64,000 nucleotides of DNA, taken from IMG/VR virus record IMGVR_UViG_3300045978_000284, positions 32,001 through 96,000 of that record, one strand, 5' to 3'. A program made the translations under genes and the position numbers. Under the pieces are notes generated by a model. The model was not told the origin of the DNA. It did not search any database and worked only from the letters and a program-made list of their open reading frames with translations. Shown in pieces: positions 640-28,635 of this stretch. Numbering within the stretch: the stretch's first letter is position 1; every line of letters starts with the position of its first letter. This stretch comes from a virus.

Positions 640-648
640 GAGGCAGGG

Positions 649-1026: not shown

Positions 1027-1027
1027 G

Positions 1028-1210
1028 ATGGACATCTCGATCGCCGTCATCTGCGCCCTGATCCTGGTGGCGGCGTTCCTGCTCACGCACTTCATCCCGA
1101 TGCCTTCCTGGGTGGCAGGGATCCTCTGGGGGCTGGCGGTGCTGGCCATCATCGTCATCGTCACGCGCGCCCTCGGGATCCGAACGGGTCTTGCCATGCT
1201 CACCCTGTGA
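1028..1210 (+). CDS. Small two-TM membrane protein (holin candidate)
   Basis: 60 aa, two hydrophobic segments; holin role unproven. Confidence 0.6.
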   Translation: MDISIAVICALILVAAFLLTHFIPMPSWVAGILWGLAVLAIIVIVTRALGIRTGLAMLTL

Positions 1211-1222
1211 GGCCCTAGATCC

Positions 1223-2107: not shown

Positions 2108-2108
2108 G

Positions 2109-4711: not shown

Positions 4712-4726
4712 GAAAGGACGAGGGCT

Positions 4727-5209: not shown

Positions 5210-5682
5210 GCTGGAAGGGGACGGTCCTGACGCCCGAGACGGTGCCCCCGGCCATCCGGGCGGACCTGATGCGCAAGGCCAACCGCCGCCACCCGCGCGA
5301 TCCCGCGGCCGCGATGGCCGCCCACGAGGTGCTCGTGGCCGAGTATGCCCAGGCGCACAACGAGCGCTTCCGTGTCGTGGCGTATGACGGCGAGGTGCCG
5401 GTGATCGCCGAGGAACTGGAGGCGCGAACGCTCAAGCGCCTCTCGCCGAAGGCGCGGCGGATCGCCACGGCCCTGCTCCTGAGCACGCCCGACGTGCGGG
5501 CGGAAGCGCTCGGGGCCTTCGAGGCCTCGGGCGCGCTGCGCTCGGTCCTGGAGCCCGTGCCGGCCGCTGCGGCTGAGAGCGCCCCGCCACAGGCACCACC
5601 GCCGCCGCCCCCATCCCGCCAGCCGGCGCCAGCCTCCAGCCGTCCATCGCATACGCCGCCTGGACGCTCGACCCGGCGGTAG
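5206..5682 (+). CDS. Hypothetical protein
   Basis: ATGA overlap, Pro-rich tail. Confidence 0.6.
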   Translation: MSWKGTVLTPETVPPAIRADLMRKANRRHPRDPAAAMAAHEVLVAEYAQAHNERFRVVAYDGEVPVIAEELEARTLKRLSPKARRIATALLLSTPDVRAEALGAFEASGALRSVLEPVPAAAAESAPPQAPPPPPPSRQPAPASSRPSHTPPGRSTRR

Positions 5683-5691
5683 CCCCGTCGC

Positions 5692-7080
5692 GTGTCGACC
5701 GGGGTCTTCCGGCGCTATCCGCGGCGGTACCCGCGGGCCTGGATTGCCGGCGCGCCGGCGGGCGGCGTGGTCTCGGCGTCGATCGACTACGGCCTGACCG
5801 CGGCGGTGCCGGCAGCGACCACGGCGATCGCAGGGAAGTCGATCGCGTACGGGGTGGTCGTCAACGCCCCGGCTTCGGCCAGTGCCGTGCGCGCCGCGGC
5901 CCTGCCGCTCGGGGTGATCGAGGCGCTCGGCCTGGGCCGCGTCCTGTCGGCCGGCGCATCGCTCTCGCTGACGACCGTGGAGGGGCTCGTGCTCGCGGCG
6001 AGCCGCACCGCGGCCGCCGCGCTGGCGCTGGGCGTCACGGAAGCGCTGACGCCGACCGCGGGCCTCCTGGCGGTGGCGTCGCTGACCCTCGGCACCCAGA
6101 CGGCCCTGATCCTGAACGGGCTTCCGCCGGGGGCGAGTCTGGACCTCGGGATCACGACCGGGCTGGCCCAGAGCGCGGGCCTCCTGGCGGTGGCCTCGAT
6201 GCCGTTCGGGGTCACGGGCGCGATGGCCCCGGCCCCGCAGACCACACGCGAGGGGACCCTCGCCCTGTCGGTCGAGATCGGGTTGGTCCAGGTTGGCGCC
6301 GCGGTCCTCCAGGCGGCGCTCGGGCTCGGGCTGACGTCGCTCCAGAGCCAGCAGGCCGGCACGGTCGCCTCGGCCCTGATCACCTACCCCGTGCTGGAGC
6401 AGCTTGGCCTGGTGGCGGGCGGGAGCCTCATGGCAGCCCAGACGCTGGCCGCGGTGATGGGGTTCACCCCGGCCGCCGCGCCGAGCGGTGTGAGCGTCCT
6501 CGAGCTGGGTACGCAGCTCGCCCTGACCCTGCCGGCGCCGAACGCGATCATGGCGGCGATCCTGTCCATGGGGGTGCAGCATGGGATGGCGCTGGCGGGC
6601 GGCGCGATGCTGCAGGCGCTGCAGGCCCTGGGGATCACGACGGCGTTCCTGCCCGAGCCGGCGGGCGGGACCCAGCAGGCGCCGCTGACGCTGTCGCTCA
6701 CGACGGACCTGGCGCTCGCGGCCTCCCGCGTGTCGGCGGCGCTCCTCAGCCTGACGTCGATCCCGGCGCTGTCTCCGGATGCTCAGCACCAGCTCGGGCG
6801 CGCGCTGGCCCTGACGATCCAGCAGGAGCTGGCCCTGCACACGCAGACGGCGCAGTCGGCGCTGATCCAGTACGGGCTGACGGCCAGCCAGGTGCAGCTC
6901 GGCGGGATGGTCCACCAGGCGGTGATGAGCCTGGCGGCGTCGCTCGTGCTGGCCCAGAACGGGGCGCTGTTCTCGGCGATCGGCCACCGCATCCGCTTCA
7001 CGGGCGAGCAGATGCGGGCGGCCACCATGACGGGCGAGTCGATGGGCGGCGCGTCGCCGAAAGGGGAACGATTGGTATGA
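5692..7080 (+). CDS. Ala/Leu/Gly-rich repetitive fibre-like protein
   Basis: Degenerate repeats (GLLAVAS, LxLGV/IT), almost no charged residues. Confidence 0.65.
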   Translation: MSTGVFRRYPRRYPRAWIAGAPAGGVVSASIDYGLTAAVPAATTAIAGKSIAYGVVVNAPASASAVRAAALPLGVIEALGLGRVLSAGASLSLTTVEGLVLAASRTAAAALALGVTEALTPTAGLLAVASLTLGTQTALILNGLPPGASLDLGITTGLAQSAGLLAVASMPFGVTGAMAPAPQTTREGTLALSVEIGLVQVGAAVLQAALGLGLTSLQSQQAGTVASALITYPVLEQLGLVAGGSLMAAQTLAAVMGFTPAAAPSGVSVLELGTQLALTLPAPNAIMAAILSMGVQHGMALAGGAMLQALQALGITTAFLPEPAGGTQQAPLTLSLTTDLALAASRVSAALLSLTSIPALSPDAQHQLGRALALTIQQELALHTQTAQSALIQYGLTASQVQLGGMVHQAVMSLAASLVLAQNGALFSAIGHRIRFTGEQMRAATMTGESMGGASPKGERLV

Positions 7081-7454
7081 GGCCCAACTCCTACTGGCAC
7101 AGTACCGAGCGGACGACGGGGGCGTACACGGTGAAGGCCCTGAAGGACGAGGACGGGATCGTCCTGACGAGCCTCGATACCCTGACCCTCTCGGTGTGGG
7201 ATCTCAAATCGGGCGCGATCATCAACGGGCGCGACCGGCAGGACGTGCTCAACCAGAACGACGTGACGTTCAATGGGGACGGCTCTCTGCTCTGGCGCGT
7301 CCAGGCCGCCGACCGGCCGATCCTGGACGACACGCAGGACTGGGAGGACCACGTCGCCATGTTCGAGTTCACCTATGCGGGCGGGGGGCGAACCGGCCAC
7401 TGGGTGCTCCAGGACCGGATCGACAATCTCCAGAAGGTGCCGGCGACGCCGTGA
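7077..7454 (+). CDS. Small beta-sandwich structural protein (BppU N-terminal-like)
   Basis: LKDEDG...L...LTL...G.L.W.....D pattern, follows the fibre-like gene. Confidence 0.5.
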   Translation: MRPNSYWHSTERTTGAYTVKALKDEDGIVLTSLDTLTLSVWDLKSGAIINGRDRQDVLNQNDVTFNGDGSLLWRVQAADRPILDDTQDWEDHVAMFEFTYAGGGRTGHWVLQDRIDNLQKVPATP

Positions 7455-10400
7455 GCGCGAAGTGGGACGTGGTTCTGGCCGAGCGCCTGCTGGCGGACAA
7501 AGAGCGCTCGGGCATCGAGGCGTTCATGCGCGGCACCGGGCGAAAGCGCGGCGGCGGCGAACAGGGTGGCGGCGGTGGTGACGAGGACGACGGAGACTGC
7601 AAGTGGGTCACCATCCGCGGTAACCCCGTCTGCCTGACGCCGGGTCATGGTGGCCACCGGAAGGGCGAGTCCATCGCGAAGTCCCAGGCGGCCTACTCCG
7701 ATGTACCCACGGGGAAGGGGGGCCGCGTGCGCGCGGTGTCCCGGATCTGGAACCCGACCGCCGAGAACACCTGGCGGGGCTCCGGTGCCGTGACACCGAA
7801 GTGGCCCAAGGGCGTCGAGCCCGGAAGAGTGCTCGACCGCTTCCGCTTCAACACGACGTCGATGTCCGCTTCCGGCCACATCGAGGAGGACGAGAACCAA
7901 CGCAAGCGGGCCGTCATCCACGAGGTGGTCAACGACACGCCGAGCCTCCTGACGTCGCAGGAGCGGCGAAACCAGCCGACCGGATCCTACCCGTCGCGCG
8001 CCGGCGAATCCCGCACCCTGCTCCGCGAGCTGATGGTCAGCCTGCGCGACAAGGGGGTGCGGGAGGCCATCCTGCCCCCCAGGGTGGTCGGGGCGGGCGC
8101 CGAGCCGTGGATGGCGTACCAGTCCACGCGCGGGGACAAGCCGTACCCGCGGAGCTGGCCCGGAATGAGCGTGCAGTTCGGCCGCGCCGAGCCCAGGCCA
8201 GGAGTCGTGGCGGGTCCAGGCCTCGGCGATGCGACGGCGCGCCCGGTTCCGCCCCATCGCATCCTCGATCGCCTCAAGGCCAAGCCGGTCACGGACGCGG
8301 GCGGCAAGATCACGGGCTACCGGGTGAACGTCGAGGAGATGCAGTACCTCTGCGAGATGGCATGGCCCGAGGATCGCGTCCTGGCGGATCCGGAGCGGCG
8401 GCGCGTGGTGGCCGCCTTCGACTTCGACGGCACGCTGGCCCAGTACCAGGGGTGGGGCGACGGGACACCGGGCGATCCGATCCCGGGCATGCGCGAGGTC
8501 ATCGACCAGCTGCAGGCCGCCGGCGCCGAGGTCCTGATCTTCTCGACGCGGGATGCCGACCAGATCCGGGCCTGGCTCACGAAGCACGAGTGGCCGGCCC
8601 TGGAGGTGACGAACAAGAAGCACCCGCGGATCACGGTGTACATCGACGACCGGGCCCTCGAGTACGAGCCCGAGACGCTCGACACCCTGGCCGTCCGGGT
8701 CATGAACTTCCGCCCGTGGTGGCAGACGGTCGACCACCAGCTGGCGGACGAGGACGACGACTGCACCTGGATCACGATCGACGGCCGCCACATCTGCATC
8801 CAGCCCAAGCACGCCTGGCATGACCGGACGCCGCGCGTGAAAGTCAGCCGCGCGCCGCACTGGCGACGTGAGCCGATCGAGGGCAAGCGCATCAGCTGGT
8901 CCCAGCAGGGGAAGATGGGGGAGCGCCTGGCGATCGCGCATCTCAAGCGCCTTGGGTTCCGGGACGCGCGGCCGGCCACGAAGATCTCGAACTTTCCCGT
9001 CGACCTGGTGCACGGGGACACCCTGGTCGAGGTCAAGACGGGGCTCGCCAGCAACACGCAGAAGAGCCAGCACTGGCGGACCACGATCGGCGAGCCCGGC
9101 AAGGCGGAGCGGCGCTGGCTGCGCGAGCTGGACCGGGACAAGAAGCTCCGGTGGAACGCCGAGAAGATGCGCCAGATCCATCTCCGCAAGCAGGCGGTCG
9201 TGAAGGCGCTCTCGCGCGAGCTGGGCCGTCCGATCAAGACGGAGACCGTCGCGCTCATCCTCGACCCGGGCCGGCGCAAGGCCGACGTGTACCGCTTCGA
9301 GGGCTTCCCCAGGCGCGTGGGATGGCGCTCGCCCACGGCCCAGCAGGGCTACGTGACCACCTACGACTACAAGCTGAGCGAGGACCTGTGGGACGTACCG
9401 GCCCCGCCGCTGCGGCCGGACGTCTACGAACTCGCCGAGCCCGAGGCGGAGCCCGCTGATCCGGAGACGGTCGATGACGAGGCCGACGACGACGCGGACT
9501 GGCCGTCCTGGGTGCCGCTGGGCGTGCGCGCCGAGGTCGAGGGTGCGCTGTCGCGCTGGAGCCGCGACGTCGAGAAGGCGATCGCGAAGGAGGACAGCCG
9601 GTCGCTCGCCGAGGAGGACGACGACGAGTGCATCTGGCGCATGATCGGGGGCCACCCGGTCTGCATCCGCGCGAGCCACGCGGAGCACGGCCGCGGCGAG
9701 CGACCGGACCGTGGGGCCCCCCGGGAGACCCGGCGGTTCCGCTCCGAGACCACCCCACGCGCCCCGAAGCCCCCGGCGAAGGGCATCAACCCGGAGCCCT
9801 TGACCACCCGGGTGGCGAGCCCTCGGCTCTTCAGCCCGGTTGCCCGGGCGGTGCCGCTGGGCCATCGCTACGGGGAAAAGCCGTCCGGCGACCCGGAGGG
9901 CCACCTGAACTCGGTGTTCCGCGTGACGCTGGAGAACGGCAACGACGCGGTGTGGAAACCGGCCGCCGGCGAGCACAGCGCGTTCTCCGGCGCCGATCCC
10001 GCCAAGCTGAAAGGATTCACGCAGGACCTCCGGGCGTTCGGCCAGCCAGGCACCTACTGGAAGCGCGAGGTGGCGGCCTCCCGGATCGCCCGGGCGGTGG
10101 GCATGGAGGACCTGGTGCCGTCCACCGACCCGGCCTCGTTCGGCACCGAGCACGGGGCGCTTCAGACGTTCCAGCGCGGGGTGAGCCCCATGACCCTCGG
10201 GCGCGATCTCTACGGCAAGCGGCTCGAGGACGTCGAGCGCGCGGTGCTGTACGACGCGGTCATCGGGAACTTCGACCGCCACTTCGGCAACTGGCTGGTG
10301 GCCCCCACCGGCAAGCTGATCCTGATCGACCATGGCCACGCCTTCCCGCGCACCCAGGTCGTGAAGCACCCGGGGGACCTCCGGGAAGGTCTCCGGGCAG

Positions 10401-10594
10401 GCGGCGAAATGAACCGCGAGATCCCGGAGGCCGTGAAGGAGCCCTGGAAGAAGATCGAGAGCCAGCTCCCGACGCTCCTGCGGGGTCTTTCGTCGGCCAC
10501 CATCAAGACGACGCGGCAGCGGCTCGGCCTCGCCCTCAAGCCAGGCCAGACGTGGATCGGCCTGCGGCGCGACCTGGAGCGGCCGTTCAAGTAG
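7451..10594 (+). CDS. Multidomain head-associated polyprotein: unknown domain, HAD phosphatase, PD-(D/E)xK nuclease, PI3K/HipA-like kinase
   Basis: GTGA overlap start; FDFDGTL...FSTR...YIDDRA; GERLA...PVDL...VEVKT; KP..GE...REVAA...GNFDRHFGNW...IDHGHAF; three DDxCxWxxIxGxx[VI]C tags. Confidence 0.85.
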   Translation: MSAKWDVVLAERLLADKERSGIEAFMRGTGRKRGGGEQGGGGGDEDDGDCKWVTIRGNPVCLTPGHGGHRKGESIAKSQAAYSDVPTGKGGRVRAVSRIWNPTAENTWRGSGAVTPKWPKGVEPGRVLDRFRFNTTSMSASGHIEEDENQRKRAVIHEVVNDTPSLLTSQERRNQPTGSYPSRAGESRTLLRELMVSLRDKGVREAILPPRVVGAGAEPWMAYQSTRGDKPYPRSWPGMSVQFGRAEPRPGVVAGPGLGDATARPVPPHRILDRLKAKPVTDAGGKITGYRVNVEEMQYLCEMAWPEDRVLADPERRRVVAAFDFDGTLAQYQGWGDGTPGDPIPGMREVIDQLQAAGAEVLIFSTRDADQIRAWLTKHEWPALEVTNKKHPRITVYIDDRALEYEPETLDTLAVRVMNFRPWWQTVDHQLADEDDDCTWITIDGRHICIQPKHAWHDRTPRVKVSRAPHWRREPIEGKRISWSQQGKMGERLAIAHLKRLGFRDARPATKISNFPVDLVHGDTLVEVKTGLASNTQKSQHWRTTIGEPGKAERRWLRELDRDKKLRWNAEKMRQIHLRKQAVVKALSRELGRPIKTETVALILDPGRRKADVYRFEGFPRRVGWRSPTAQQGYVTTYDYKLSEDLWDVPAPPLRPDVYELAEPEAEPADPETVDDEADDDADWPSWVPLGVRAEVEGALSRWSRDVEKAIAKEDSRSLAEEDDDECIWRMIGGHPVCIRASHAEHGRGERPDRGAPRETRRFRSETTPRAPKPPAKGINPEPLTTRVASPRLFSPVARAVPLGHRYGEKPSGDPEGHLNSVFRVTLENGNDAVWKPAAGEHSAFSGADPAKLKGFTQDLRAFGQPGTYWKREVAASRIARAVGMEDLVPSTDPASFGTEHGALQTFQRGVSPMTLGRDLYGKRLEDVERAVLYDAVIGNFDRHFGNWLVAPTGKLILIDHGHAFPRTQVVKHPGDLREGLRAGGEMNREIPEAVKEPWKKIESQLPTLLRGLSSATIKTTRQRLGLALKPGQTWIGLRRDLERPFK

Positions 10595-10820: not shown

Positions 10821-10872
10821 GTCAATCAACGCGCTCCCGGCTGTGACCGGGGGCGGCATGGCTGACCCGCAA

Positions 10873-10909
10873 AGGGAGGCCCGACGCGTCGTCGTCGGGC
10901 CTTTCTCTT
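10873..10909 (+). terminator. Intrinsic terminator-like hairpin in leader
   Basis: AGGCCCGACG/CGTCGGGCCT 10-bp stem followed by TTCTCTT. Confidence 0.6.
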
Positions 10910-10929
10910 GTCTGGTCCTGACAACGATT

Positions 10930-11052
10930 CGCACGGCTCGACCCAGCGCCCGGAGTCATGACCCGGGCGCCGGCGAAATGCCGGGACACCGAGGGGCGGT
11001 TTCTGGTGCACCAGCCAGGAACCGCCCTTCTGTGTTCTGGGGCCGGGGTCAG
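10930..11052 (+). ncRNA. Candidate structured leader RNA
   Basis: Stems GCGCCCGG/CCGGGCGC, CCGGC/GCCGG and 16-bp GAGGGGCGGTTTCTGG/CCAGGAACCGCCCTTC. Confidence 0.35.
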
Positions 11053-11065
11053 AGGGAGAGCAGGC

Positions 11066-11746
11066 ATGATCAAGCCGTTCAAGGGACTGGCGCTCTTCGG
11101 TCGCATCCGGACTCGCCGCGGCGAGGTCGCAACGTTCCCGGGCGCGCGCGCCTTCAACATTCTTCGGGTCACGGGCGTCGTGGCGGATCCGGAGACGATC
11201 ACCATCGGCGCCGATGTGTACGAGATCGACCTGGCGGCCGACGGCGTGACGGCCGGACGCATTCAGGTGGTTCCGGCCACGAACTCGGCGGACAACTTCC
11301 TCACGGCGTTCGCGGCCAAGGTCAACCAGAGCGGCCAGGGGATCGCCGGCGCCGGTGTCGAGGCGGTGCGCGCGCTCAAGATCAGCGCCACGGAGGTCGC
11401 CGTCTTCACGGCGACGCCGCGGGTGTCGACCATGGCGCTCGCCGAGAGCATGACGAACGGCGCCTGGGACTCGGCGGCCCTGCGCGGCGGCCTGGCCACC
11501 TCGGAGCGCCGGATGTTCATGGACGCCCGGGTCCCGACGGCCGGCGAGGTGACGGCGGGCACGATGCACTTCGTCCTGGACTTCACGCCGCGCGCGGTGG
11601 GGATCAACGTCGTGGTCACCTCGACGGGGGTCATCAAGGCCTGGGACGGCGGCCGCGTCCTGGCGGCCGGCCTGCTCACCCTCAACAACGCCGGATCCGT
11701 GGACTGGGCCGCCACCGACACGGTCCACGTCCTGGCCATGGAGTAG
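11066..11746 (+). CDS. Putative head fibre/decoration protein
   Basis: GAGGGAG RBS; ETITIG..VYE motif seen in virion proteins. Confidence 0.6.
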   Translation: MIKPFKGLALFGRIRTRRGEVATFPGARAFNILRVTGVVADPETITIGADVYEIDLAADGVTAGRIQVVPATNSADNFLTAFAAKVNQSGQGIAGAGVEAVRALKISATEVAVFTATPRVSTMALAESMTNGAWDSAALRGGLATSERRMFMDARVPTAGEVTAGTMHFVLDFTPRAVGINVVVTSTGVIKAWDGGRVLAAGLLTLNNAGSVDWAATDTVHVLAME

Positions 11747-11754
11747 CCGAGGGC

Positions 11755-12036
11755 GTGAGCGTCGGAGGTCTGGATGCCGCAGAGCTGGCCCGCGAGCTGG
11801 CGCCGCTCAACCCGAGGATCTCGGTGGGCATTCGCCAGGGGGGCGCGGAGGGCAAGGGCAAGCGCATGCCATATGACAAGCTGAGCGGCCTGCCGGACCA
11901 CGTGCGCAAGCGCGGCAAGACGGCCAGCAAGCGCTGGCGGGCGATCTTCAACAGCGTGTTCGCGAAGGACGGCGAGGCGAAGGCCTTCGCGGCGGCCAAC
12001 GCCTCGCTGGATGACCCGCATTCCGGGCACACCTGA
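11755..12036 (+). CDS. ChaB-family protein (alternative start 11866)
   Basis: MPYDKLSGLPDHVRK...WRAIFNSVF...AFAAANA; ChaB commonly sits beside prohead proteases. Confidence 0.75.
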   Translation: MSVGGLDAAELARELAPLNPRISVGIRQGGAEGKGKRMPYDKLSGLPDHVRKRGKTASKRWRAIFNSVFAKDGEAKAFAAANASLDDPHSGHT

Positions 12037-12042
12037 GACCGC

Positions 12043-13806
12043 ATGCTGAGCGACCGGATCGGTCGCGTGATCGAGGGGTACGAGCTCTCAACGTCGCTCT
12101 TCGGGGAGCCGAAGTCGAAGCTCCTGCTCTTCCCGCGCGGCCAGTTCGATCATCCGAAGTACGGCAAGATGACCTTCGACGACGAGTTCTTCGACGAGGT
12201 CGTCGCCAACTACAAGAACAAGGTGCTCGGCCGGACCGAGCCCTACATCGACTTCGACCACCAGAAGGGCCGCGCGGCCGCGTGGATCCGCGAGCTGTCG
12301 GTCGATCCCGATGGCCTGTGGGCCTCGCGCGTCGACTGGACGCCCGCCGGCGAGACGGCGGTGCGCTCGGGCGAGTACCGCTACGTGTCGCCCTGGTGGG
12401 GCTCCGTGTCCGACGCGGCGAACGGCGAGACCTACGATCGCGTGCTGCGCGGGGCCGGGCTCACGAACGTCCCCTATCTGAAGCAGCTTCCGCCGGTGGC
12501 CCAGGACGCGGTCCTTGAGGAGAGCGAGCCGCTGGTCGAGCTGATGCTCAGCGAGTTCCTGCTCGCGGGCAACCCGTACCGGGCGGCCGATGGGACGTTC
12601 ACCGACGCGGCCCACGACGTCGGCGGTGGCGGTGTCGGTGGTGGTGGCGGCAAGGGCGGCGGCGCCGGGCCCGCTGCGGTCAAGGTCTCGCGCAGCGCGG
12701 CCCGGGGCGCCCAGATCGGCTGGGACCTCGGGCGCCTCTTCGGCTCCACGAAGCTCTCCGGGGCAGCGGCGACCGGCATCGGGATCGCGGCCGGTCTCGG
12801 GTCGCTGGCCGCGGCGAATCCGGATGCGGCCATGAAAGTGGCGGGCCTGGCGAAGGCCCTCGGCTCGCGTGTCATGCGTCACGGGCCGGCGATCGCTGGA
12901 ACCGTCCTGGCCGGCGCGGGCATGCTCGGGCTGTCGCGCGTCGGCCGGCCCCCCGCGCCAGGGCGACAGTCACCGGCCGAGCTTGAAGTCGGCGCGGCCA
13001 TGGCGCGGCAGGGCTTGCTCCCGCCCGCGGCTCCCGGTGGCGCTCCCGCGAAGCCAGCGCTGGGAGCTCTGGCGACCGGGAAAATCCAGAACGCCAAGGC
13101 CGTGCTGCGCGAGGTGCTCTCGCGCTATCGCTCGATGCCCCTCAAGCCGGAGGCGCCCGCCGCTCCAGCGGCGCCCGCCGAACCGCCCTACACGTCCTGG
13201 GTCGAGCGGCAGATCGCGTCGGGCGAGAAGGGCTCGCGAGGCACGCGGCGGCTGCGCAAGGGCGGCGGCGTCGGCTACCAGGGCGGCCGCAACGTGCGCC
13301 TCGACGACGTGCTCGCCACGTTCCGGGAGTTCCGCCTGGCGGATGAGGAGGACGACGCCCTGGAGGCCATCGACGTCGATGCCATCCCGGACGATCTCGC
13401 CGAGGCGATCCTGAAGATGCTGCAGGCCTACGTGGAGCGCGAAGAGAAGGCGCTCTCCGAGCGGCTGCATCGCACGCTGACCGGCCAGGCGCTCGCCGAT
13501 GGCGACCCGGAGGACGAGGACGAGGAAGAGGACGAGGACGAGGACGAGGACGAGGATCTCGAGTCCCTGCCGAACCGGGTGCGCGCAGCCTGGAACGCGA
13601 TGTACCCGATGGGCATCTCCATGAACGGCGCGCGCCATCCCTACCTCACCAAGATCTTCGAGGAGCACGTGATCGCGGAGGACGGCGAGCGGCCGAACAC
13701 GTGGTGGCAGATTCCGTGGCGAGAGGTCGGCCCACAGATCGTCTTCGACATGGCGGCCCGCATCCCGGTCCACCAGGTGTGGCTGCCTGCGGGAGCGACC
13801 GCATGA
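12043..13806 (+). CDS. Mu I-like prohead protease fused to tagged cargo and acidic scaffold-like domain
   Basis: PRG.F.HP.YG, IDFDH, AAAWI, VDWTPAG, GEYRYVSP, GAGLTNVPY motifs. Confidence 0.9.
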   Translation: MLSDRIGRVIEGYELSTSLFGEPKSKLLLFPRGQFDHPKYGKMTFDDEFFDEVVANYKNKVLGRTEPYIDFDHQKGRAAAWIRELSVDPDGLWASRVDWTPAGETAVRSGEYRYVSPWWGSVSDAANGETYDRVLRGAGLTNVPYLKQLPPVAQDAVLEESEPLVELMLSEFLLAGNPYRAADGTFTDAAHDVGGGGVGGGGGKGGGAGPAAVKVSRSAARGAQIGWDLGRLFGSTKLSGAAATGIGIAAGLGSLAAANPDAAMKVAGLAKALGSRVMRHGPAIAGTVLAGAGMLGLSRVGRPPAPGRQSPAELEVGAAMARQGLLPPAAPGGAPAKPALGALATGKIQNAKAVLREVLSRYRSMPLKPEAPAAPAAPAEPPYTSWVERQIASGEKGSRGTRRLRKGGGVGYQGGRNVRLDDVLATFREFRLADEEDDALEAIDVDAIPDDLAEAILKMLQAYVEREEKALSERLHRTLTGQALADGDPEDEDEEEDEDEDEDEDLESLPNRVRAAWNAMYPMGISMNGARHPYLTKIFEEHVIAEDGERPNTWWQIPWREVGPQIVFDMAARIPVHQVWLPAGATA

Positions 13807-15735: not shown

Positions 15736-16509
15736 ATGGGCAAGTTGCTCGTTCAGCTGCGCAAGGATCTCGCCCTCGCCGAGGACGCGACGGTCGTCGA
15801 GGTCATGGACCACATGGGCCGCATGCTCGCGGACGACATGACCGAGGAGGAGAAGAAGAAGGCCGAGGAAGAGGCCGCCGCCGCCAATGCGGCGAAGAGC
15901 GCCGAGGAGGAGGCCAAGAAGGAAGAGGACAAGGAGATGTCGGAGGTGCGCGCGCTGCTCAAGATCGCCAAGCCGAAGCCGGGCGCGATCCTGACGGCGG
16001 TGCGGACTCTCACGACGTCGGCCTCCGACCACGTGCTCTCGGAGACCGCGCTGGGCCGCGAGCTTGCCGAGCTGCGCCTGTCCCACAAGGAGCTGTCAGA
16101 TCAGGTCGAGGAGCTGCGCCCCGCGGCCGCGGAAGCGACGCGCCTGGCGGCCGAGGCGAAGGCCACCAAGAAGGCCACCTTCTTCGATCGCCAGCTCCAC
16201 GAGGGCAAGCTGAAGCCGGCGGAGCGGTCGTTCTATGAGGCCCAGTACGACCTCAACGAGGACGCGGTGGTCAAGTTCTTCGGCGAGCGCAAGCCGGAGA
16301 TCAAGCTCGGCCAGTGGCCGTCGGTCAATCGCCCGGTCGAGGAGCCCGCGGCCGGGGATCCGCGCGAGCGGGTGCTGGCCGAGGCGCAGAAGCTCGCCCT
16401 CGCCGAGAAGATTCCGCTCGACCAGGCCGTGCACCGCGTGACGGCCCAGGACCACGAGCTGGCCGAATCGGTGCGGGGCATGTACGGCCCGGCGGGCGTC
16501 CGCCGGTAA
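15736..16509 (+). CDS. Capsid scaffolding protein
   Basis: Charged coiled-coil, EGKLKPAE motif, position between protease and capsid, strong RBS. Confidence 0.8.
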   Translation: MGKLLVQLRKDLALAEDATVVEVMDHMGRMLADDMTEEEKKKAEEEAAAANAAKSAEEEAKKEEDKEMSEVRALLKIAKPKPGAILTAVRTLTTSASDHVLSETALGRELAELRLSHKELSDQVEELRPAAAEATRLAAEAKATKKATFFDRQLHEGKLKPAERSFYEAQYDLNEDAVVKFFGERKPEIKLGQWPSVNRPVEEPAAGDPRERVLAEAQKLALAEKIPLDQAVHRVTAQDHELAESVRGMYGPAGVRR

Positions 16510-17010: not shown

Positions 17011-17952
17011 ATGCCTCCGGCACGGCTCGACCCACGTGATGTGCGTATCGACCCGCTGCTGTCGTCGATCTCGGTGGCGTATGTGAACCGGGCCTACATC
17101 GCCCCGGGGATCGCGCCGGTCATCCCGAGCGACCTCGACGGCGGTCGGTACACGGAGTACAACCAGGCGGACTGGTTCCGGAACGAAGCGTCCAAGCGCG
17201 CGGCCGGCACGCGCTCGCGACGCGGCGAGTACGGGATCACCTTCTCGACCTACTTCTGCGAGGAAGTGGCGTTCTCGCGGGAAATCCCGGACGAGATCCG
17301 GCAGAACGCGATGCAGCCGATCCGTCCCGACACCGACGCCACCAACTACGCCACGGACAAGGTCATGCTGGCGAAGGAGGTGCGGGTCGCCACCAAGATG
17401 CGGACGGCGGCCAACTGGCCCGGCTCGGTGGCCCTGACCGGCACCAACCGCTGGAACGACTACGCGAACAGCGATCCCATCTCTGACGTCGAGGCGGGGA
17501 TCGACCTGATCCACGGCCGCACGGGGTACGACGTCAACACGATGGTCCTGCCCCATCCGGTGTGGAAGAAGCTCAAGCATCACCCGGACATCATCGACCG
17601 CATCAAGTACAGCCAGCGCGGCTTCGTGAACGTGGAGCTGCTGCAGGAGCTGTTCGAGGTCGAGCGGATCATGGTGGCCAAGCCCGTGTACACCCAGAGC
17701 AACGAAGGGCTGGCGGCCGGCGCCGAGACCTACCAGTACGTGTGGGGCAAGGACGTCTGGCTCGGCTACATCACGGGCAATCCGGGCATCCAGGAACCGA
17801 CGGCGATGTACCAGTTCGTGAGCGGCCAGCGGGCCACGCGCACCTGGCGGGAAGAGCCCGAGCACCAGGACGTGGTCGAGGCCTACGAGAAGGTGGACGA
17901 GAAGGTGATCAGCCAGCTGCTGGGCTATCTGATCGCCACCGCGATCGACTAG
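17011..17952 (+). CDS. Major capsid protein
   Basis: IDPLLSSISVAY.N..YIA, W.DYANSDPI.D, L.HHPDI.DRIKY, YVWGKD motifs; 313 aa. Confidence 0.9.
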   Translation: MPPARLDPRDVRIDPLLSSISVAYVNRAYIAPGIAPVIPSDLDGGRYTEYNQADWFRNEASKRAAGTRSRRGEYGITFSTYFCEEVAFSREIPDEIRQNAMQPIRPDTDATNYATDKVMLAKEVRVATKMRTAANWPGSVALTGTNRWNDYANSDPISDVEAGIDLIHGRTGYDVNTMVLPHPVWKKLKHHPDIIDRIKYSQRGFVNVELLQELFEVERIMVAKPVYTQSNEGLAAGAETYQYVWGKDVWLGYITGNPGIQEPTAMYQFVSGQRATRTWREEPEHQDVVEAYEKVDEKVISQLLGYLIATAID

Positions 17953-22451: not shown

Positions 22452-22913
22452 ATGGTCCGTCTCCGCGAGGTCTCCGTCGACGAGCTGCTCGAGGCGGGGA
22501 TGCCGGACCAGGTGTGCGATCCCTACGGGGTGACCTACCGGGCCATGGATGCCGACGAGCAGGTGGCGCTGCGCCTGTCCTGGGAGCACTGGATGAACCG
22601 GCTCCTGGCCACCGCCATCGAGGAACCCGCTTTCCTGCGCGACGAGCGGAAGATCAACCTGATGGGCCCGGACCGGGATCGGGTCGGCTACGCGATGCTG
22701 CGCCGCTGGGGGATCCTCTCGGACACGCCCGGGCGGCTCGATACGACGATGAAGCGCCGCCACTTCCTCGGCATGGTGCAGCGGTTCTCGCTCCGGATGC
22801 GCATGCTCCCGACGGACGTGCTCGCCATGCCGGCCAGCAAGTTCTGGCGAAACTACCTGATCCTGTTCGGCGACTTCGGGTCTCCCGACGAGGAGGTGAT
22901 GCGCGGTGCCTGA
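22452..22913 (+). CDS. Second tail assembly chaperone (start uncertain, possibly reached by frameshift)
   Basis: C-terminal RMLPTDVL.MP..KF motif; open frame continues upstream without ATG/GTG. Confidence 0.65.
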   Translation: MVRLREVSVDELLEAGMPDQVCDPYGVTYRAMDADEQVALRLSWEHWMNRLLATAIEEPAFLRDERKINLMGPDRDRVGYAMLRRWGILSDTPGRLDTTMKRRHFLGMVQRFSLRMRMLPTDVLAMPASKFWRNYLILFGDFGSPDEEVMRGA

Positions 22914-25900
22914 CGAACGGCTGATGTACGAGGTGCAGGCCACCTGGCGGGACAACGCCACCCAGGGCATCCGCGAGTTCCAGCAGCAGCTCGCCACCAC
23001 GACGAAGAACACCGTCGACTGGATGGCGACGACGCGAGATGCCATCCCGATCGCCGGGCAGCTCCAGCAGCGATGGAACGAGGTCGCGCTGGCGATGCGC
23101 AACGTGGCGCCGTCGATCGCCCAGACCATGACCAACCTGACGTCGCTGCACGGCGTCATCCAGCTGGGGGCCCGGCTGATCACAGACCGGATCACCGCGA
23201 CCAACAAGGCCGCGGAGAGCCAGGCTCAGTGGAACATCTCGATTCGCAGCATGACGATGGACGCGTTCGAGGCGGAGCTGGCCTCGGCCAACCGCTCACT
23301 CGAAGAGTTCACGGTCCGCAGCGAGAGCTTCCTCGGGCGCCTGGTCAACGCCTGGACCGATGCCAAGAAAAAGTTCCAGGAAGGCCAGACGACCCGCGAA
23401 CAGTTCCAGGCCGCCCAGCAACAGTTCAACGAAGCGTTTACCCTACGCGAGCTACCGCAGCTGCAGATCCGCGACCAGCTGGAGATGCTCGCCATCCAGC
23501 GACGCATGGCCGAGGCCAAGCGGGACGCATCCCGGACCGAGCAGGAAGCCGCCCAGCACGAGCGGGAGCGCGTGCTCATCATGCGCCAGCAGCGCGAGCT
23601 GCAGCTCGAGCTGGAGCGGATCGAGCTGCGCCGCCAGATCGCCGCCTCCCAGGCCATGGGGCAGACGGCCCGAGCAGAGTACTACCAGGGGCGCCTGGCT
23701 CGGGTGGACCAAGCGGGGGTCGCCGCCCAGCAGATCGAGGATCTCGAACGCCAGCCGCGACGCGGCACCGTGACGGGCACGGGCACGGTCAGCTTCCGGG
23801 AAGGCCGCCAGCTGATCGCGCCGGCGGTCGCCGCGCTGGCGCCCGAGTTTGCCGGCCCGGTCTTCCAGGGCGCCCAGGCCCTGCGCCTCGGCGGCTTCGT
23901 CGCGGCCTCGGGAGCGATGGGCGCCGGCATCGCCCTCGGTGCGATCGGCGTCGGCGTGACGGCGCTCGCCGCGTACATGAACGCCGCGAACGAGGCGGCG
24001 CAGGCGCAGGCCGCGCTGAACCTCGCGGTCCGCTCCTTCGATGTGAGCGGGCTCCATTCCCAGCTGCGCTCGCTCCACGGGGACCTGGAGCTGATCGACG
24101 TCCGTGCGGAGTCGATCACCGGGCACTTCGTCAACATGAGCGCGGCGTTCTACAAGTTCCTGACCGGCATGCCCACGGAGCGCGAGCTGTTCGTCCAGCG
24201 CGCAGCCGCGCTGTCGGCGATTTTCGCCGAGACCGAAGGAGCGGCCGCGACGGCGCGGGCCAACCAGGCGATCATCGGCGGCCAGCAGGCCGGCGTCGGG
24301 GCCCAGCTCGAGGAGGCCCGCTTCCGTCGTGGCCTGGCGGTGTCCCCGGGGGCGATCGCGGGAGCCGTCGGGGTGGAGCGCGGCCTCATGCAGCGCCAGA
24401 CCGAGCTGGAGGTGCAGAGCCTCAACGAACAGCTGCGGGAGCTCGAAGCGCAGCGGCGCAGCCGCCTGAAGCCCATCGAGGATCTCATCCGTCGCTTCGA
24501 GAACATCCCGGGCGGCGACATGGGCGAGCGCGCCGGCCAGATGAGCCGCGACATCGAGGCGCGCCTCAGGTGGGAGATGCGCACCGGCTTCCGGGACCCC
24601 GCGCTCCCGCGATTGAGGGAAGAGCAGCAGACCATGGCGCGGGCCGCCAGAGCGGGCGGGCTCGAACAGCTGCGCACATCGGCGGAGGAAGAGTTCGAGG
24701 GCCGGCGCCAGCAGCTCATCATGCAGCGCGCCGCCGTCGAAGAGCGCGGGGCGACGGCGCGGCGCGGGCTCGACATCGAGCTGCAGCTGGGCAATCTCCA
24801 GCGCATCCAGGAGGGTCTGCAAAGCATCATCTCGGCGCGCACGCTCCTGTCGCAAGGCACCATCGAGGGAGCCCGCTACGAGCGCGGCCGCGCCATCATC
24901 CCCCAGGACATCGAGCGCGCCGGGGCCATCGAACGCGCGGAGATCGTCCAGACGCTGGACCTCGAATCGTGGACGCTCAGGAATCAGCTCACCCAGCTCG
25001 ACGAGGAGCGAAAACTCCGCGGCAGCGAACCCTACGGTCGCCGCGAGGCGCTCGAAACCCAGCTCGACGCCCTGGCCCGCCGCCGGCTGAACGTCCTGCA
25101 GCAGTTCGACGACCGCCTCCAGGCCGAGCGCCAGGCCATGATCGAGGCCATCCGGGTCCGGGAACAGCAAGGCGAGCTGCTGCTCGACTCCGCGCTCTAC
25201 GGTGCGGTGAGCCCCCTGGCCCAGCAGCAAGCGGAGGAATACGGCCAGCGGATCATGGCCGGCCAGGAGCTGCAGCGCACCTACAACCTGCCGGCCATCA
25301 TGGAGCAGCTGCAGGGGCGCATCCCGGAGGCCTTGCGCGAGCGCCTGGGGCGCGCCGCGCCGGCGATCGCCCCGATGGAGATCTCCCAGATCCAGCGCGA
25401 GATGGACTTTCGCGCCCAGCAGGAGCAGTACCGCCTGGCGGGACGCGACCGCGAGATCCAGGCCCGTCAGGAGCAGTTCCAGGCGCTCTACCAGATGGGC
25501 CAGATCACACAGCCCGAGATGTCCCGCGCCGAGATCGCCGGCATGGCGGAGCAGGTCGACGTCCTCACCGACCGCATCCGCGAGCTGAACCGCCAGCGCG
25601 ACGCGCTTGCCGACACCAGCCAGAACCAGGCCCAGCGGGAAGCGCTCGTGGAGGAGACGCGCAAGACCACCGCCGAGATCGAGCGGCTCTACCGGGACAT
25701 GATCGTGTCGATCAAGGAAGTGGGGGACCAGGAGGACCCCTTCGCCGGCGTCATCAAGGGCCTCCAGGACGTGGCCTCCGGCGCCGAACAGTGGGGCACC
25801 CGGATGCGCTCGATCGTGCAGGGCACGGCGTCCGACCTGGGCGGCTTCATGTCGAACAGCTTCTTCACCGTGGTGGACGAGGGATTCAAGGGGCTCGGGC

Positions 25901-28635
25901 CGCTGGCCGAGCAGGCGGGGCGCGCCATCGTCACGCGCTTCCTCTCGGCATTCGCAGAGGCCCAGCTCTCGGATCTCGCCAAGATGTTCCTGGGCCAGGG
26001 AGCCGCCCGCGGCTTCCCGACGCTGACGAGCATCGCCCCGTCGGGTGCCGCCGACGGCGGGGCTCCCACCACAGGCGGCATCCTCCCGGCGGCGGCGGCG
26101 ATCGCGCCCTTCGTGTCGAGTGGTCCGATCGCGCATCCGGCCGAGCCCTCGAGGCCGACGGGTGTCAGCGTACCCGCTGCGGTCCCGGCCGTCCCGGCGG
26201 AGCCCGTCGAGATTCCGGAGCCCGTCGCGATCCCCGCCGAACCCGCGGAGCCCGTCGAGATTCCGGAGCCCGTCGCGCTGCCCGCGCCGCCCATCGGCGT
26301 TGTCCAGCTTCCGCATCTTCTCGCGATTCCAGCCGATCCTCTGGCGCCCATCGACATCCCGGAGCCCATCGCCCTGCCCTCCGGCCCCCTGCTGCCGATC
26401 GAGATCCCGGAACCCATCGCGATTCCGTCGGATCCGCTCGTGCCGATCGAGATCCCCGCGCCCATCGCGCTCCCGGCGGGCCCGCTCCTCCAGGTCGAGG
26501 TCCCGGAGCCGATTGCGCTCCCGGCGGAGCCGGTCGATCTGACCGCGATGCCATCCGTGGCCACGGTGGCGCCGCCGCTGCTGCCAGAGTTCGTGGCCTT
26601 GTCGCCCGCGCCGACCCAGACGCCGCTTGGGTTGGCGGGTCAGATTGGCCAGCTCGCCCGCATCCTCACGGGCGGCCTCGTGGGAGGTCAGCGCCAGCCG
26701 ATCGCCGTCCCGCCTGACCTGATCAGCGCCTTGGTCCTGCCCGGAGCGGCCGTGCCAGGCGCGCAGGCCGTCTCCGGCCCCATGGAGCCGATGGGGCAAG
26801 GCTTCGCCTTCCCAGACGTCAGCCAGTACAGCTTCGGACTGGGCCGCGTCACGGCGCCACAGGTGGGGACCCCCGTCGTCCCTCGTGCACCGGCCACTGG
26901 GTTCTCGGGATTCGTCGAGGGGCTGGGAACGTCGGTGCGCGGGTTCCTCGGCACGCCGATCTCGCAGTTCTTCGGCGGCGGGACGTCCGCGGCCGCCCAG
27001 GCGCGGCAGCTCCAGAGCATGGACGCGTTCGCCACGTTCGACGAGATGGGCACGGCGATGCCCTCCCAGACACCTGGGTTCCAGTCCATGACGCGGTTCG
27101 GCGAGTTCGGCGAGATCACGCCTTCGGTGTCGGCCGCCGGCGCTGGGAGTGGCTTCGACCTGACCGCGGCGCTGCAGTCGCTGACCGTGGGCCAGGGGCT
27201 CGGCCTCGCGCTCTCCTCGGTGACCTTCGGTGTCGGCCTCTACTCGGCCTACCAGTCGGGATCGCCCCTGGCGGGCACGATCACGGGCGGGCTCTCTGGC
27301 GCGGCCCTGGGCGGCCAGCTGGCGGCCACGGGCCTCGTCCCGGTGGCCAGCTCGACGGCCGGCGCGATCGGGGCGGGCGTGGGCGCCGCGGCGGGGCTCG
27401 CGCTGGCGCTCGCCGGTCGGGCCAAGACGAAGCAGGAAAAGCGAACAGCTATCAACCGGACGCGGCGCATGGGGGCCTATGCCACGGGAGCCGCGCGCCT
27501 CGTCCGCCGTCTGGCGCAGGGGCTGGACGAGGCGGTCGACCGGGCGAACGAGGAGGTCCAGAACGCCGCGAAGAACGCCACCCTGGCGAAGCCGGTCGCG
27601 GTGCTCGACGAGTATCTACGGACGCACGTCGTCGGCGATCTGGGCGACCCCGGCTACACCATGACCAACGGGTGGAAGACCTTCGGCGGCACGATGAAGG
27701 GCATCACGGGCGAGATCCAGTACGGCCAGGCGATCGCTTTCAAGGACCCGCTGCCGAAGGGGTGGGGCATCCGCCCGGGCGGCCGCGTGATCGACCCGGA
27801 CCCGAGGTTCGATGTCATCCTGCACGAGGCCGACCTCGGGGCCGGCACGCCCCCCACAGAGTTCTGGGGCTACGCGGACGCCGGCGACGTGGTCACGGTG
27901 CTGGCTGAATACGTCCGGGTGCGGGAGAGGTTTCAGGAGATGCAGGACCGACTCGACCTGGAAGCGGCGGGCGACCGCCTGACGGCAGCGGCGGAAGCGG
28001 CGGACGAACACGTGGCGGCCATGGCCAAGCTCGCCTATGGTCAGCCGCGCGCGGCGGCGATCTTCTTCGAGTCGCTCCGGGGCGGCCAGGTGGCCGGACT
28101 GCCCCTCGGCGGCGTGATCCGGAAGCTCGCCCAGCTCAACCTGGCCGGTCGCTTCGGGCAGGACTGGCCGGTCGATGCCGAGCTGCAGGGCCTCGCGGAC
28201 GACGAGCGCCTGGGTCCCGCGGTGGATGTGCCGGACTCGTTCATCGCGGCGGACAATCTGGGGCGCCTCCGGTCGATCGTGGAGGGCGCCCGCCGCGGGC
28301 GCGAACAGCTGGACGAGGCAGACGCGGACCTGCGCGCCCAGTTCCAGGAAATCGGTGAAAAGGCCCCCATCGCCTATGATGAACGCTCGACCGTGGGGGG
28401 CGTGACCAGGCGGACGTACTTGCCGTTCCAGGCGCGGCCGGGCGGACCGGCCGACGACGTGTATGAAGCGCCCCGGGGCCAGCAGTTCCTCGTCAGCGGC
28501 CAGCAGCTCGGCTCGCTCGGACTCACGGACGATCAGGTGTCGGATCTGATCAAGCACATCCGCGAAGTGGCAGGCCGCCGGGGCATGGTGATGGACCTCG
28601 GGTCAGATGATTTCATGATGACCGGCCTCGGCTGA
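22906..28635 (+). CDS. Tape measure protein
   Basis: 1909 aa, Ala/Gln/Glu/Arg helical, Gly-rich TM-like segments, synteny. Confidence 0.9.
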   Translation: MPDERLMYEVQATWRDNATQGIREFQQQLATTTKNTVDWMATTRDAIPIAGQLQQRWNEVALAMRNVAPSIAQTMTNLTSLHGVIQLGARLITDRITATNKAAESQAQWNISIRSMTMDAFEAELASANRSLEEFTVRSESFLGRLVNAWTDAKKKFQEGQTTREQFQAAQQQFNEAFTLRELPQLQIRDQLEMLAIQRRMAEAKRDASRTEQEAAQHERERVLIMRQQRELQLELERIELRRQIAASQAMGQTARAEYYQGRLARVDQAGVAAQQIEDLERQPRRGTVTGTGTVSFREGRQLIAPAVAALAPEFAGPVFQGAQALRLGGFVAASGAMGAGIALGAIGVGVTALAAYMNAANEAAQAQAALNLAVRSFDVSGLHSQLRSLHGDLELIDVRAESITGHFVNMSAAFYKFLTGMPTERELFVQRAAALSAIFAETEGAAATARANQAIIGGQQAGVGAQLEEARFRRGLAVSPGAIAGAVGVERGLMQRQTELEVQSLNEQLRELEAQRRSRLKPIEDLIRRFENIPGGDMGERAGQMSRDIEARLRWEMRTGFRDPALPRLREEQQTMARAARAGGLEQLRTSAEEEFEGRRQQLIMQRAAVEERGATARRGLDIELQLGNLQRIQEGLQSIISARTLLSQGTIEGARYERGRAIIPQDIERAGAIERAEIVQTLDLESWTLRNQLTQLDEERKLRGSEPYGRREALETQLDALARRRLNVLQQFDDRLQAERQAMIEAIRVREQQGELLLDSALYGAVSPLAQQQAEEYGQRIMAGQELQRTYNLPAIMEQLQGRIPEALRERLGRAAPAIAPMEISQIQREMDFRAQQEQYRLAGRDREIQARQEQFQALYQMGQITQPEMSRAEIAGMAEQVDVLTDRIRELNRQRDALADTSQNQAQREALVEETRKTTAEIERLYRDMIVSIKEVGDQEDPFAGVIKGLQDVASGAEQWGTRMRSIVQGTASDLGGFMSNSFFTVVDEGFKGLGPLAEQAGRAIVTRFLSAFAEAQLSDLAKMFLGQGAARGFPTLTSIAPSGAADGGAPTTGGILPAAAAIAPFVSSGPIAHPAEPSRPTGVSVPAAVPAVPAEPVEIPEPVAIPAEPAEPVEIPEPVALPAPPIGVVQLPHLLAIPADPLAPIDIPEPIALPSGPLLPIEIPEPIAIPSDPLVPIEIPAPIALPAGPLLQVEVPEPIALPAEPVDLTAMPSVATVAPPLLPEFVALSPAPTQTPLGLAGQIGQLARILTGGLVGGQRQPIAVPPDLISALVLPGAAVPGAQAVSGPMEPMGQGFAFPDVSQYSFGLGRVTAPQVGTPVVPRAPATGFSGFVEGLGTSVRGFLGTPISQFFGGGTSAAAQARQLQSMDAFATFDEMGTAMPSQTPGFQSMTRFGEFGEITPSVSAAGAGSGFDLTAALQSLTVGQGLGLALSSVTFGVGLYSAYQSGSPLAGTITGGLSGAALGGQLAATGLVPVASSTAGAIGAGVGAAAGLALALAGRAKTKQEKRTAINRTRRMGAYATGAARLVRRLAQGLDEAVDRANEEVQNAAKNATLAKPVAVLDEYLRTHVVGDLGDPGYTMTNGWKTFGGTMKGITGEIQYGQAIAFKDPLPKGWGIRPGGRVIDPDPRFDVILHEADLGAGTPPTEFWGYADAGDVVTVLAEYVRVRERFQEMQDRLDLEAAGDRLTAAAEAADEHVAAMAKLAYGQPRAAAIFFESLRGGQVAGLPLGGVIRKLAQLNLAGRFGQDWPVDAELQGLADDERLGPAVDVPDSFIAADNLGRLRSIVEGARRGREQLDEADADLRAQFQEIGEKAPIAYDERSTVGGVTRRTYLPFQARPGGPADDVYEAPRGQQFLVSGQQLGSLGLTDDQVSDLIKHIREVAGRRGMVMDLGSDDFMMTGLG
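26190..26540 (+). repeat. Approximately 16-aa Pro-rich repeats in tape measure
   Basis: P[IV][ED]IPEP[IV]A[LI]P units, about 7 copies. Confidence 0.85.

Follow-up and report, generated by a model that had tools for sequence, protein, structure and literature searches.

The gene at positions 7451..10594 (+ strand) of a 64,000-nucleotide stretch of uncultured-phage DNA (the window; bases 32001-96000 of IMG/VR record IMGVR_UViG_3300045978_000284) codes for a protein of 1047 amino acids (aa), which combines a HAD-type phosphatase, a PD-(D/E)xK nuclease-like module, an atypical kinase and a fourth domain without family match with three copies of a short Cys/His-containing peptide, referred to below as the tag. 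The protein is a new member of the phage-type polyvalent cargo proteins and would reside in the capsid interior. Here we establish its anatomy and the identities of its domains as well as a tag family and the linkage of this family to head genes and head proteins. Going beyond this, we propose from the sequences, with about an even chance of being right, that the tag, stabilised by zinc, serves as an address or as a label for processing, and that a Mu-like prohead protease would cut the chain into injectable enzymes. The complete record comprises 108,431 bp with approximately 70% G+C and is estimated to be 96% complete.

An earlier note on this DNA had placed an open reading frame (ORF) at 7451-10594 with three peptides at about 7580, 8741 and 9605, and the translation agrees with all of these positions, the peptides starting at D43 (nt 7577), L431 (nt 8741) and L719 (nt 9605). 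The note described the repeated peptide as a Cys-Trp-Cys tag, which is correct as to the three copies, but the unit is longer than described, with an LA[DE] triplet, an acidic run and an HxxH also belonging to it. The tag represents a self-contained mini-module of approximately 27 residues, in which an acidic run, usually preceded by L-A-[DE], leads into the beta-hairpin C-x-W-x-T-I-x-G-x-x-[VI]-C and an H-x2-H loop; shared by all three copies are the acidic run, C-x-W-x-x-I-x-G-x-x-[VI]-C and then [LI]-x3-H-x2-H. Tag 1 (residues 43-69; 7577..7657, +; 70.9 bits) contains C50-x-W52...C61, H66 and H69 and has no LA[DE] directly before it, while tag 2 (residues 431-457; 8741..8821, +; 68.7 bits) consists of LAD, the acidic run, C438-x-W440...C449, H454 and H457, and tag 3 (residues 719-746; 9605..9688, +; 73.8 bits) of LAE, the acidic run, C727-x-W729...C738, H743 and H746. 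Scanning the window for the motif in six frames returned only these three tags, and searching the whole 108-kb genome with a tag profile resulted in exactly four copies scoring 69-76 bits, with all else at 6.4 bits or below. The fourth copy is located in a portal fusion protein and is 58% identical to tag 3. An intein or other self-cleaving module was considered and rejected, as such a module would be longer than the tag and the N-G turn lacks a conserved Asn.

The beta-hairpin expected between the two Cys was recovered by AlphaFold2, which was run on a 43-residue window with an alignment of 19 sequences. The model of tag 3 forms a hairpin of two strands (13-18 and 21-26) with a mean predicted local distance difference test score (pLDDT) of 84 for residues 11-20 and of 76 for residues 21-30. 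C13, W15, G20, C24 and H29 are invariant in the alignment, and the second His is nearly so. Both Cys face the same side of the hairpin because the two-residue turn pairs C24 with W15, and C13 is located two residues along the same strand. With its four conserved Cys and His residues the tag therefore resembles a metal site, and it is reasonable to infer from the model that these residues would form a zinc site; the alternative is a cross-strand disulfide between the two Cys.

The modules of the protein are arranged in the order leader, tag 1, a domain of residues ~75-300, HAD phosphatase, tag 2, PD-(D/E)xK nuclease, tag 3 and PI3/4-kinase-like kinase. The four-enzyme cassette of the earlier note stands for the HAD, nuclease and kinase domains, but the remaining domain is without a family match, so we count three enzymes plus one further domain. 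The N-terminal leader (residues 1-42; 7451..7576, +) contains LAE at residue 9 and LAD at residue 14 and is followed by a Gly-rich linker. The HAD-type phosphatase (~residues 315-425) is preceded by LAD at residues 311-313 (8381..8725, +, for both), which together with the LAD at residue 431 places it between two such sites, just as previously noticed. Its motifs I-IV are legible as D324-x-D326-G-T (D324-F-D-G-T), S365/T366, K389/K390 and D399-D400, and the domain matches phrog_1238 (E 4.7e-12) and phrog_415 (E 7.7e-6) and is 44% identical (tblastn) to a gene of Gordonia phage Nithya annotated as polynucleotide kinase. The HAD models of Pfam stayed under the cut-off, the best one scoring 19.7 bits vs. 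the required 26.4.

For the PD-(D/E)xK nuclease-like module (~residues 470-640; 8858..9370, +), nine homologues with 35-48% identity were obtained, and the motif D518...E527-x-K529 is invariant in all ten sequences. An AlphaFold2 model derived from the alignment of these homologues reached a pLDDT of ~85 for the domain, and the nine best matches of this model in a VIA-align comparison were all PD-(D/E)xK nucleases (Z 5.4-7.7), headed by I-Ssp6803I (Z 7.7), NhoI (7.2) and Hjc (6.5), then Hje, PvuII and EcoRV. Speaking against the assignment, the fold support is middling, since the best Z of 7.7 is below 8 and the best Foldseek match had an E of 0.09; the nuclease call therefore rests on fold and motif together. 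Searches against PDB sequences, using either the whole cargo protein or the nuclease profile, were uninformative and gave no sequence-level match. An acidic linker (residues 641-718; 9371..9604, +) with LSE at residue 642 and LAE at residue 661 leads to tag 3, and a basic, Pro-rich linker (residues 747-800; 9689..9850, +), as read from the translation, connects tag 3 to the PI3/PI4-kinase-like, atypical kinase (~residues 801-1047; 9851..10591, +). This domain matches the Pfam family PI3_PI4_kinase (PF00454) with an E of 8.3e-9 and 36.1 bits (cut-off 27.1), although the match extends over just 43 aa (residues 927-969); it also matches phrog_3162 and contains K836, a catalytic loop D942-R-H-x-x-N947 and a metal-binding D960-H-G. 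The identities of the HAD, nuclease and kinase domains are supported, and their predicted catalytic motifs are intact.

The domain of residues ~75-300 (7673..8350, +) did not match any Pfam or PHROG family. Two ESM Atlas look-ups scored 0.83-0.86, corresponding to chance level, with GNAT families far down the lists; stretches resembling Motif A and B were seen by eye, and an acetyl-CoA loop was not recognisable. We regard a GNAT identity as a weak lead. A relationship was found within the same genome, as residues 46-209 of the cargo protein are paralogous to residues 575-733 of the portal fusion (BLASTP E 1e-13), located there behind the portal tag.

This portal fusion of 1257 aa (P0005) is encoded at G000:C1:27222-30995 (L003:7222-10995), approximately 1 kb before the window start. 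It consists of a Mu-type portal, a Gly/Pro linker, the tag, a domain without family match, a 2H phosphoesterase and MuF, with Pfam E-values of 8e-33 for Portal_Mu, 5.8e-7 for the 2H phosphoesterase and 2.1e-8 for MuF, and contains LAE triplets at residues 570, 794 and 1096. The absence of a MuF domain, as previously claimed, is correct for the cargo ORF itself (none found with PF04233 at E <= 0.01), but not for its surroundings, where MuF is present in the neighbouring portal fusion carrying the same tag. In other proteins, the nuclease module recurs together with head functions. It is present in the MuF proteins P0045 (at the C-terminal end) and P0046 (ahead of MuF), in P0004 (1373 aa), which begins with DUF2213 and includes NUDIX, and in P0003 (1535 aa), whose N-terminus looks MuF-like by eye and which combines two kinases with an ADP-ribosyltransferase (ART) and an HExxH peptidase motif; a module related to the cargo kinase is also present in P0003. 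These fusions bear on the possibility that the cargo protein is not packaged; it would then be a common cytoplasmic protein with several enzyme domains whose gene happens to lie between head genes, and its repeats would be remnants specific to the lineage. The lack of MuF, portal or protease domains in the cargo ORF and the lack of recognisable functions in the surrounding ORFs would fit this explanation, but the same tag and the paralogous domain are covalently included in a portal–MuF protein, homologues of the nuclease and kinase modules occur in other proteins as fusions with head proteins, and the tag-bearing genes are located in head modules, as detailed below. We regard it as improbable that the protein stays outside the capsid.

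The tag is not confined to this phage. Viral contigs were searched at the DNA level for the canonical form of the tag, using the pattern W-[VI]-T-I-x-G-x-H-[VI]-x-[IV], which yielded at least 118 viral loci in frame within long ORFs. These loci are also conserved outside the pattern, where the Trp follows acidic residues and the pattern is continued by D/G-E-N/G-G..[VI]..G-P. A profile of the canonical tag built from 88 contexts, none of which came from this genome, matched the cargo gene in a six-frame search with an E of 2.7e-10, via tag 1 (independent E-value 6e-4) and tag 2 (1.2e-5). The connection of tag 3 and the portal tag to the canonical family is solely an indirect one, via tags 1 and 2 and via proteins with mixed copies. 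A second profile was built for the Cys/His form from six tags, four from this genome and two from the metagenome contig L122, and retrieved 36 proteins (clusters) at E <= 0.001 from 1.84 billion representative proteins. The number of matched stretches per protein rises to seven, in proteins of 2000-2400 aa, and the tags show the consensus L-x-E-A-(D/A)-D-D-C-x-W-[RIV]-T-[IK]-x-G-x-x-[VI]-C-I-T-x-G-H-x(1-3)-H. Canonical and Cys-bracketed copies are mixed within single proteins (P0017, P0023 and P0030), and some copies pair the two Cys with the canonical tail, so that the two forms grade into each other. Judged from these sequences, the Cys/His tag forms one sub-lineage within a widely distributed header peptide of the type acidic-W[VI]TIxGxH[VI]x[IV].

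A strict DNA pattern of the Cys/His form was not matched in viral contigs or species genomes (0 each) and occurred in two metagenome contigs. Searching tag peptides against Pfam and PHROGs returned no model covering the tag, and tblastn with short canonical tag peptides found nothing in cultured phages. A literature search by motif string and by descriptions of packaging or linker peptides, limited in extent and no proof of absence, returned no account of the peptide, and the widespread header itself appears to be undescribed. Two further properties were observed in large tag-bearing proteins. P0024 (2254 aa) contains five near-identical Cys-less tag variants DSDGYYWRTIRGRKIPFKEGE, spaced ~400 residues apart, as if a tagged module had been duplicated in tandem. 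In P0007 (2434 aa), MuF is directly followed by an intein splicing domain, and such a domain was also detected in one of the 73 non-redundant canonical-tag ORFs.

The similarity between contig L122 and this phage is confined to the tags, and the modules behind tags differ greatly between proteins. Both observations would be expected if the tags were recombination joints allowing the exchange of cassettes, like the conserved motifs before the tips of polymorphic toxins. At the DNA level, however, the four copies of this genome are just 61-79% identical in pairwise comparison and share no long identical stretch, whereas the conservation is seen at the protein level. We rejected the explanation because of this divergence and leave it only a very small residual probability.

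The earlier note had tied its reading to a connection of tag homologues with head modules, and such a connection was found. Portal domains, belonging to four Pfam portal families, are present in 16 of the 73 canonical-tag ORFs, MuF in three and DUF2213 in three. Two further counts point in the same direction, as MuF is present in six of the 36 proteins with the Cys/His tag, and 24 of the 25 commonest PHROG families among the neighbours of about 20 stand-alone, N-terminally tagged genes are head or packaging families, a qualitative count made without a matched control set. These families comprise portal, large terminase, head maturation protease, major and minor head proteins, and scaffold. The cargo in the 73 canonical-tag ORFs includes ART (10 cases), NUDIX, pyrophosphatase, zeta toxin, SNF2, 2H and Kinase-PolyVal, and the other Cys/His-tag proteins carry zeta toxin, ART-PolyVal, RelA/SpoT, a lethal-factor-like peptidase or Acb1. 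A further tagged protein of 609 aa, encoded at L006:5660-7486 (-) and in about a dozen identical IMG/VR loci, consists of an N-terminal canonical tag, an ART and a DUF2213 prohead protease. It matches proteins of Klebsiella and other phages over the protease part alone, which is 92-98% identical to Klebsiella phage genes lacking the tag-ART part; the GenBank phage relatives of its DUF2213 part are annotated as head maturation protease.

The position of the tag helps to judge its function. Among 74 complete canonical-tag ORFs, it is N-terminal in 32 (at most 40 residues from the first possible start), internal in 41 and C-terminal in one; the small Cys/His-set proteins P0018, P0039 and P0010 also start with it. 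Because of this N-terminal or internal and nearly never C-terminal placement, the tag always has something behind it. One alternative would be a mere structural spacer, namely a small stable hairpin, perhaps zinc-stabilised, which lets the modules fold independently, with packaging depending on other features. In line with a spacer, the tag accompanies four portal families, MuF and DUF2213 and is thus not tied to one partner, it also occurs behind portals, themselves capsid components from the start, and the canonical family shows no enrichment of a cleavage motif (see below). An N-terminal position in 32 of the 74 complete ORFs, including small stand-alone proteins, would be unexpected for a spacer, however, and C-terminal tags should occur as well, yet are represented by a single case. 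The conservation across unrelated phages is also far above that of usual linkers, and we consider the spacer function unlikely, although it deserves more weight than the lack of packaging discussed above.

The second part of our proposal, processing by a protease, is based on L-[AS]-[DE] triplets, for which expected numbers were obtained from composition shuffles. The cargo polyprotein contains seven triplets vs. 1.39 expected (p 0.0015), all of which are located at borders: two in the leader (residues 9 and 14), one ahead of the HAD domain (311), one ahead of each of tags 2 and 3 (431 and 719), and two after the nuclease (642 and 661). The putative scaffold (15736..16509) contains eight vs. 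1.03 expected, a number reached in none of 2000 shuffles, the protease ORF (12043..13806) six vs. 1.41, and the ORF after the protease five vs. 1.21. The major head protein contains none (0.34 expected), the flanking ORFs 5692..7080 and 10843..12036 none either (0.68 and 0.31 expected), and the long tail-region ORFs 22906..28635 and 28635..30821 contain five and one, which is at expectation (4.15 and 1.11). With this distribution, L-[AS]-[DE] is a candidate for the motif that the Mu-type prohead protease recognises. Among the 54 Cys-bracketed tags of other proteins, 59% have an [LIM]-x-E at a distance of 4-16 residues ahead of the Trp, vs. 13% of control windows. In phage Mu, the portal is trimmed at its C-terminus during head maturation, which would agree with a release of cargo from a Mu-type portal fusion.

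Several observations weigh against our proposal, in addition to the middling fold support of the nuclease. Tag 1 lacks an LA[DE], and in the canonical family [LIM]-x-E is nearly not enriched (19% vs. 14% of controls), so the coupling of the tag to cleavage may be lineage-specific. The excess of LAE/LSE in the scaffold could partly result from the residue order typical of coiled coils, an effect that shuffling by composition leaves uncorrected. Four further viral records with the tag, of which three are fragments, gave no match to the Mu-like_Pro family. To our knowledge, the cleavage specificity of Mu gpI-type proteases has not been reported; the JBD30 paper contains nothing on the specificity of a Mu-type protease. 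Furthermore, acting as an address cannot be the sole role of the tag, because the tags behind portals need no address. We still consider the cleavage model plausible for this lineage, from its sequence motifs and by analogy to other prohead proteases.

According to our proposal of an address or processing label, the polyprotein would initially enter the prohead, where its tag would be recognised. Cleavage after L-A-[DE] by the Mu gpI-like prohead protease would follow, as suggested by the motif enrichment and the analogy to Glu-specific prohead proteases, and would produce a fragment with the domain of residues ~75-300, the HAD phosphatase without a tag, and the nuclease and the kinase with one tag each. 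Finally, judging from the protein family, the enzymes would leave the capsid along with the DNA and target nucleic acid, nucleotides or protein of the host at the onset of infection. The earlier note had also expected an action at infection onset, which would agree with the published view of polyvalent proteins (PMC5512222); its reading of the tag as a packaging or oligomerisation handle is a conjecture.

Retention of the tag on the nuclease and kinase after a cut at LA[DE] would also suit a function after injection, in which a zinc-knuckle-like tag binds nucleic acid or a host factor and holds the enzyme on the incoming DNA or a host target, and the four conserved Cys/His of the sub-lineage are compatible with this idea. 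The strongly acidic run before the tag argues against DNA binding, however, most members of the family lack the Cys/His set, and the tagged enzymes have unrelated substrates (ART, NUDIX, SNF2, zeta toxin). We give little credence to this function.

A second header type was recognised in the same genome, which reads L-x-E..LA(G)NPYRxxxGxFT followed by D[TV]GGG and occurs in three copies at window positions 12571, 13842 and 14517 (+). The first of these lies inside the prohead-protease ORF, the other two in the next ORF. The homologous nuclease modules of other proteins are preceded by x-P-R-D-x-x-G-R-W and a glycine run in the same slot as the tag. The second header (NPxHDxxGRF and a glycine run, here NPYR..GxFT) and the hairpin tag are unrelated in sequence. 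Both types were also observed adjoining each other, in either order, at L071:3177-3416 (-) and in P0023, residues 47-75 (…QPRDEHGRWTEG…WVTIRGAHVFI…; WVTIAGHPVFIKYPGQPRDKKGKWTS). Because they stand side by side in one protein, the two headers are probably not simple equivalents. It is conceivable, although we would sooner bet against it, that the hairpin header (here in a putatively zinc-binding Cys/His form) and the second header (NPxH/PRDxxGRF) constitute a small, transferable peptide code for the capsid interior across tailed-phage lineages, which marks any protein for prohead loading and protease release. If this were true, phage heads would take up exchangeable enzymes in a way similar to the loading of encapsulins with tagged cargo.

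The cargo gene starts with a GTG codon overlapping the stop of the preceding ORF, with an AGAAGG sequence 12 nt upstream, and has a GC content of 93% at third codon positions. An identical 1047-aa product is already on record in the protein collection. Close relatives of the phage or of the gene were not found among 50,697 phage records or, using peptide patterns, in IMG/VR. The gene is located inside a head-gene cluster, with the portal fusion on its 5' side and, on the same strand, the genes for protease, putative scaffold and major head protein on its 3' side. The Mu gpI-like prohead protease ORF (12043..13806, +) matches Pfam Mu-like_Pro (E 1.2e-17) and phrog_328, head maturation protease (E 5.8e-19), the putative scaffold (15736..16509, +) has no family match and is named from its position alone, and the major head protein (17011..17952, +) matches phrog_1005 (E 1.7e-86). 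We assigned the cargo gene to the head module because of this last gene. Eight larger ORFs around the cargo gene, seven from the portal on and one on the 3' side, gave no PHROG match, and Pfam, which was run on three of them, gave no match either; for the flanking ORFs 5692..7080 and 10843..12036, no homologues were present in phage records. Co-directional ORFs fill approximately 8 kb between the portal fusion and the cargo gene (window positions 1-7450, +), and the ORF directly after the cargo gene (10843-12036, +) codes for 397 aa; for a head module, this block of genes without matches is unusually large. Upstream of the portal, a LAGLIDADG endonuclease domain is present in a 610-aa ORF (L003:102-1931), and an HNH endonuclease is encoded by a 203-aa ORF (L003:5394-6002). 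These two ORFs could be homing elements in or near packaging genes.

The closest known counterparts of the cargo protein are the polyvalent proteins. Their description reports kinases, 2H phosphoesterases fused to portal or MuF domains, and processing into separate products, and argues that the proteins are packaged and injected (Iyer et al. 2017, J Bacteriol, PMC5512222). Like these proteins, the cargo protein unites unrelated effector domains in one polypeptide (HAD, PD-(D/E)xK and PI3/4K-like plus one more), its gene adjoins virion genes of a portal-bearing phage, the terminase itself not being identified, and its nuclease and kinase modules are shared with proteins containing MuF, ART, a metallopeptidase motif, NUDIX or DUF2213. 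Unlike them, its ORF contains neither a MuF or portal anchor nor a zincin metallopeptidase, and its kinase matches PI3_PI4_kinase rather than the Kinase-PolyVal family. In the text of PMC5512222 covered by a term search, neither a W-x-T-I-x-G hairpin peptide nor its Cys/His form is mentioned. The MuF polymorphic toxins of temperate phages, as described by Jamet et al. (2017, BMC Biol, PMC5576092), are similar in being head-associated effectors, and the nuclease module is indeed found at the C-terminus of a MuF protein (P0045). They differ in that the cargo ORF has no N-terminal MuF (PF04233) and carries several effectors instead of one C-terminal toxin; the term-searched text of PMC5576092 does not mention a linker or motif.

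For the proposed processing, the prohead proteases gp21 of T4, gp175 of phiKZ and gp245 of SPN3US provide an analogy, all of which cut after Glu (L/I-x-E, S/A/G-x-E or A-x-E; PMC5694885). In T4, internal proteins are sent into the prohead by a short N-terminal capsid targeting peptide (PMC5694885). In the present phage, L-A-[ED] is found at module borders and in the scaffold. The tag resembles the T4 targeting sequence by position alone, being N-terminal in 32 of the 74 complete ORFs, and has no sequence similarity to it. In contrast to T4, the presumed cut precedes the tag, which would stay on the cargo, and the protease is of the Mu gpI type.

How head-carried, injected proteins are chosen is largely unknown for tailed phages other than T4, and the tag provides a testable handle on this question. 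It precedes enzymes as diverse as kinase, nuclease, ADP-ribosyltransferase, NUDIX and Acb1-like proteins, either fused to head proteins or free-standing, and its Cys/His form is a possible metal-dependent variant. The combination of phosphatase, nuclease and atypical kinase in the protein described here represents a candidate kit for early host takeover or counter-defence. If the tag is an address or processing label, injected effectors would become predictable from metagenome sequences, and the tag would be usable for loading chosen proteins into phage capsids.

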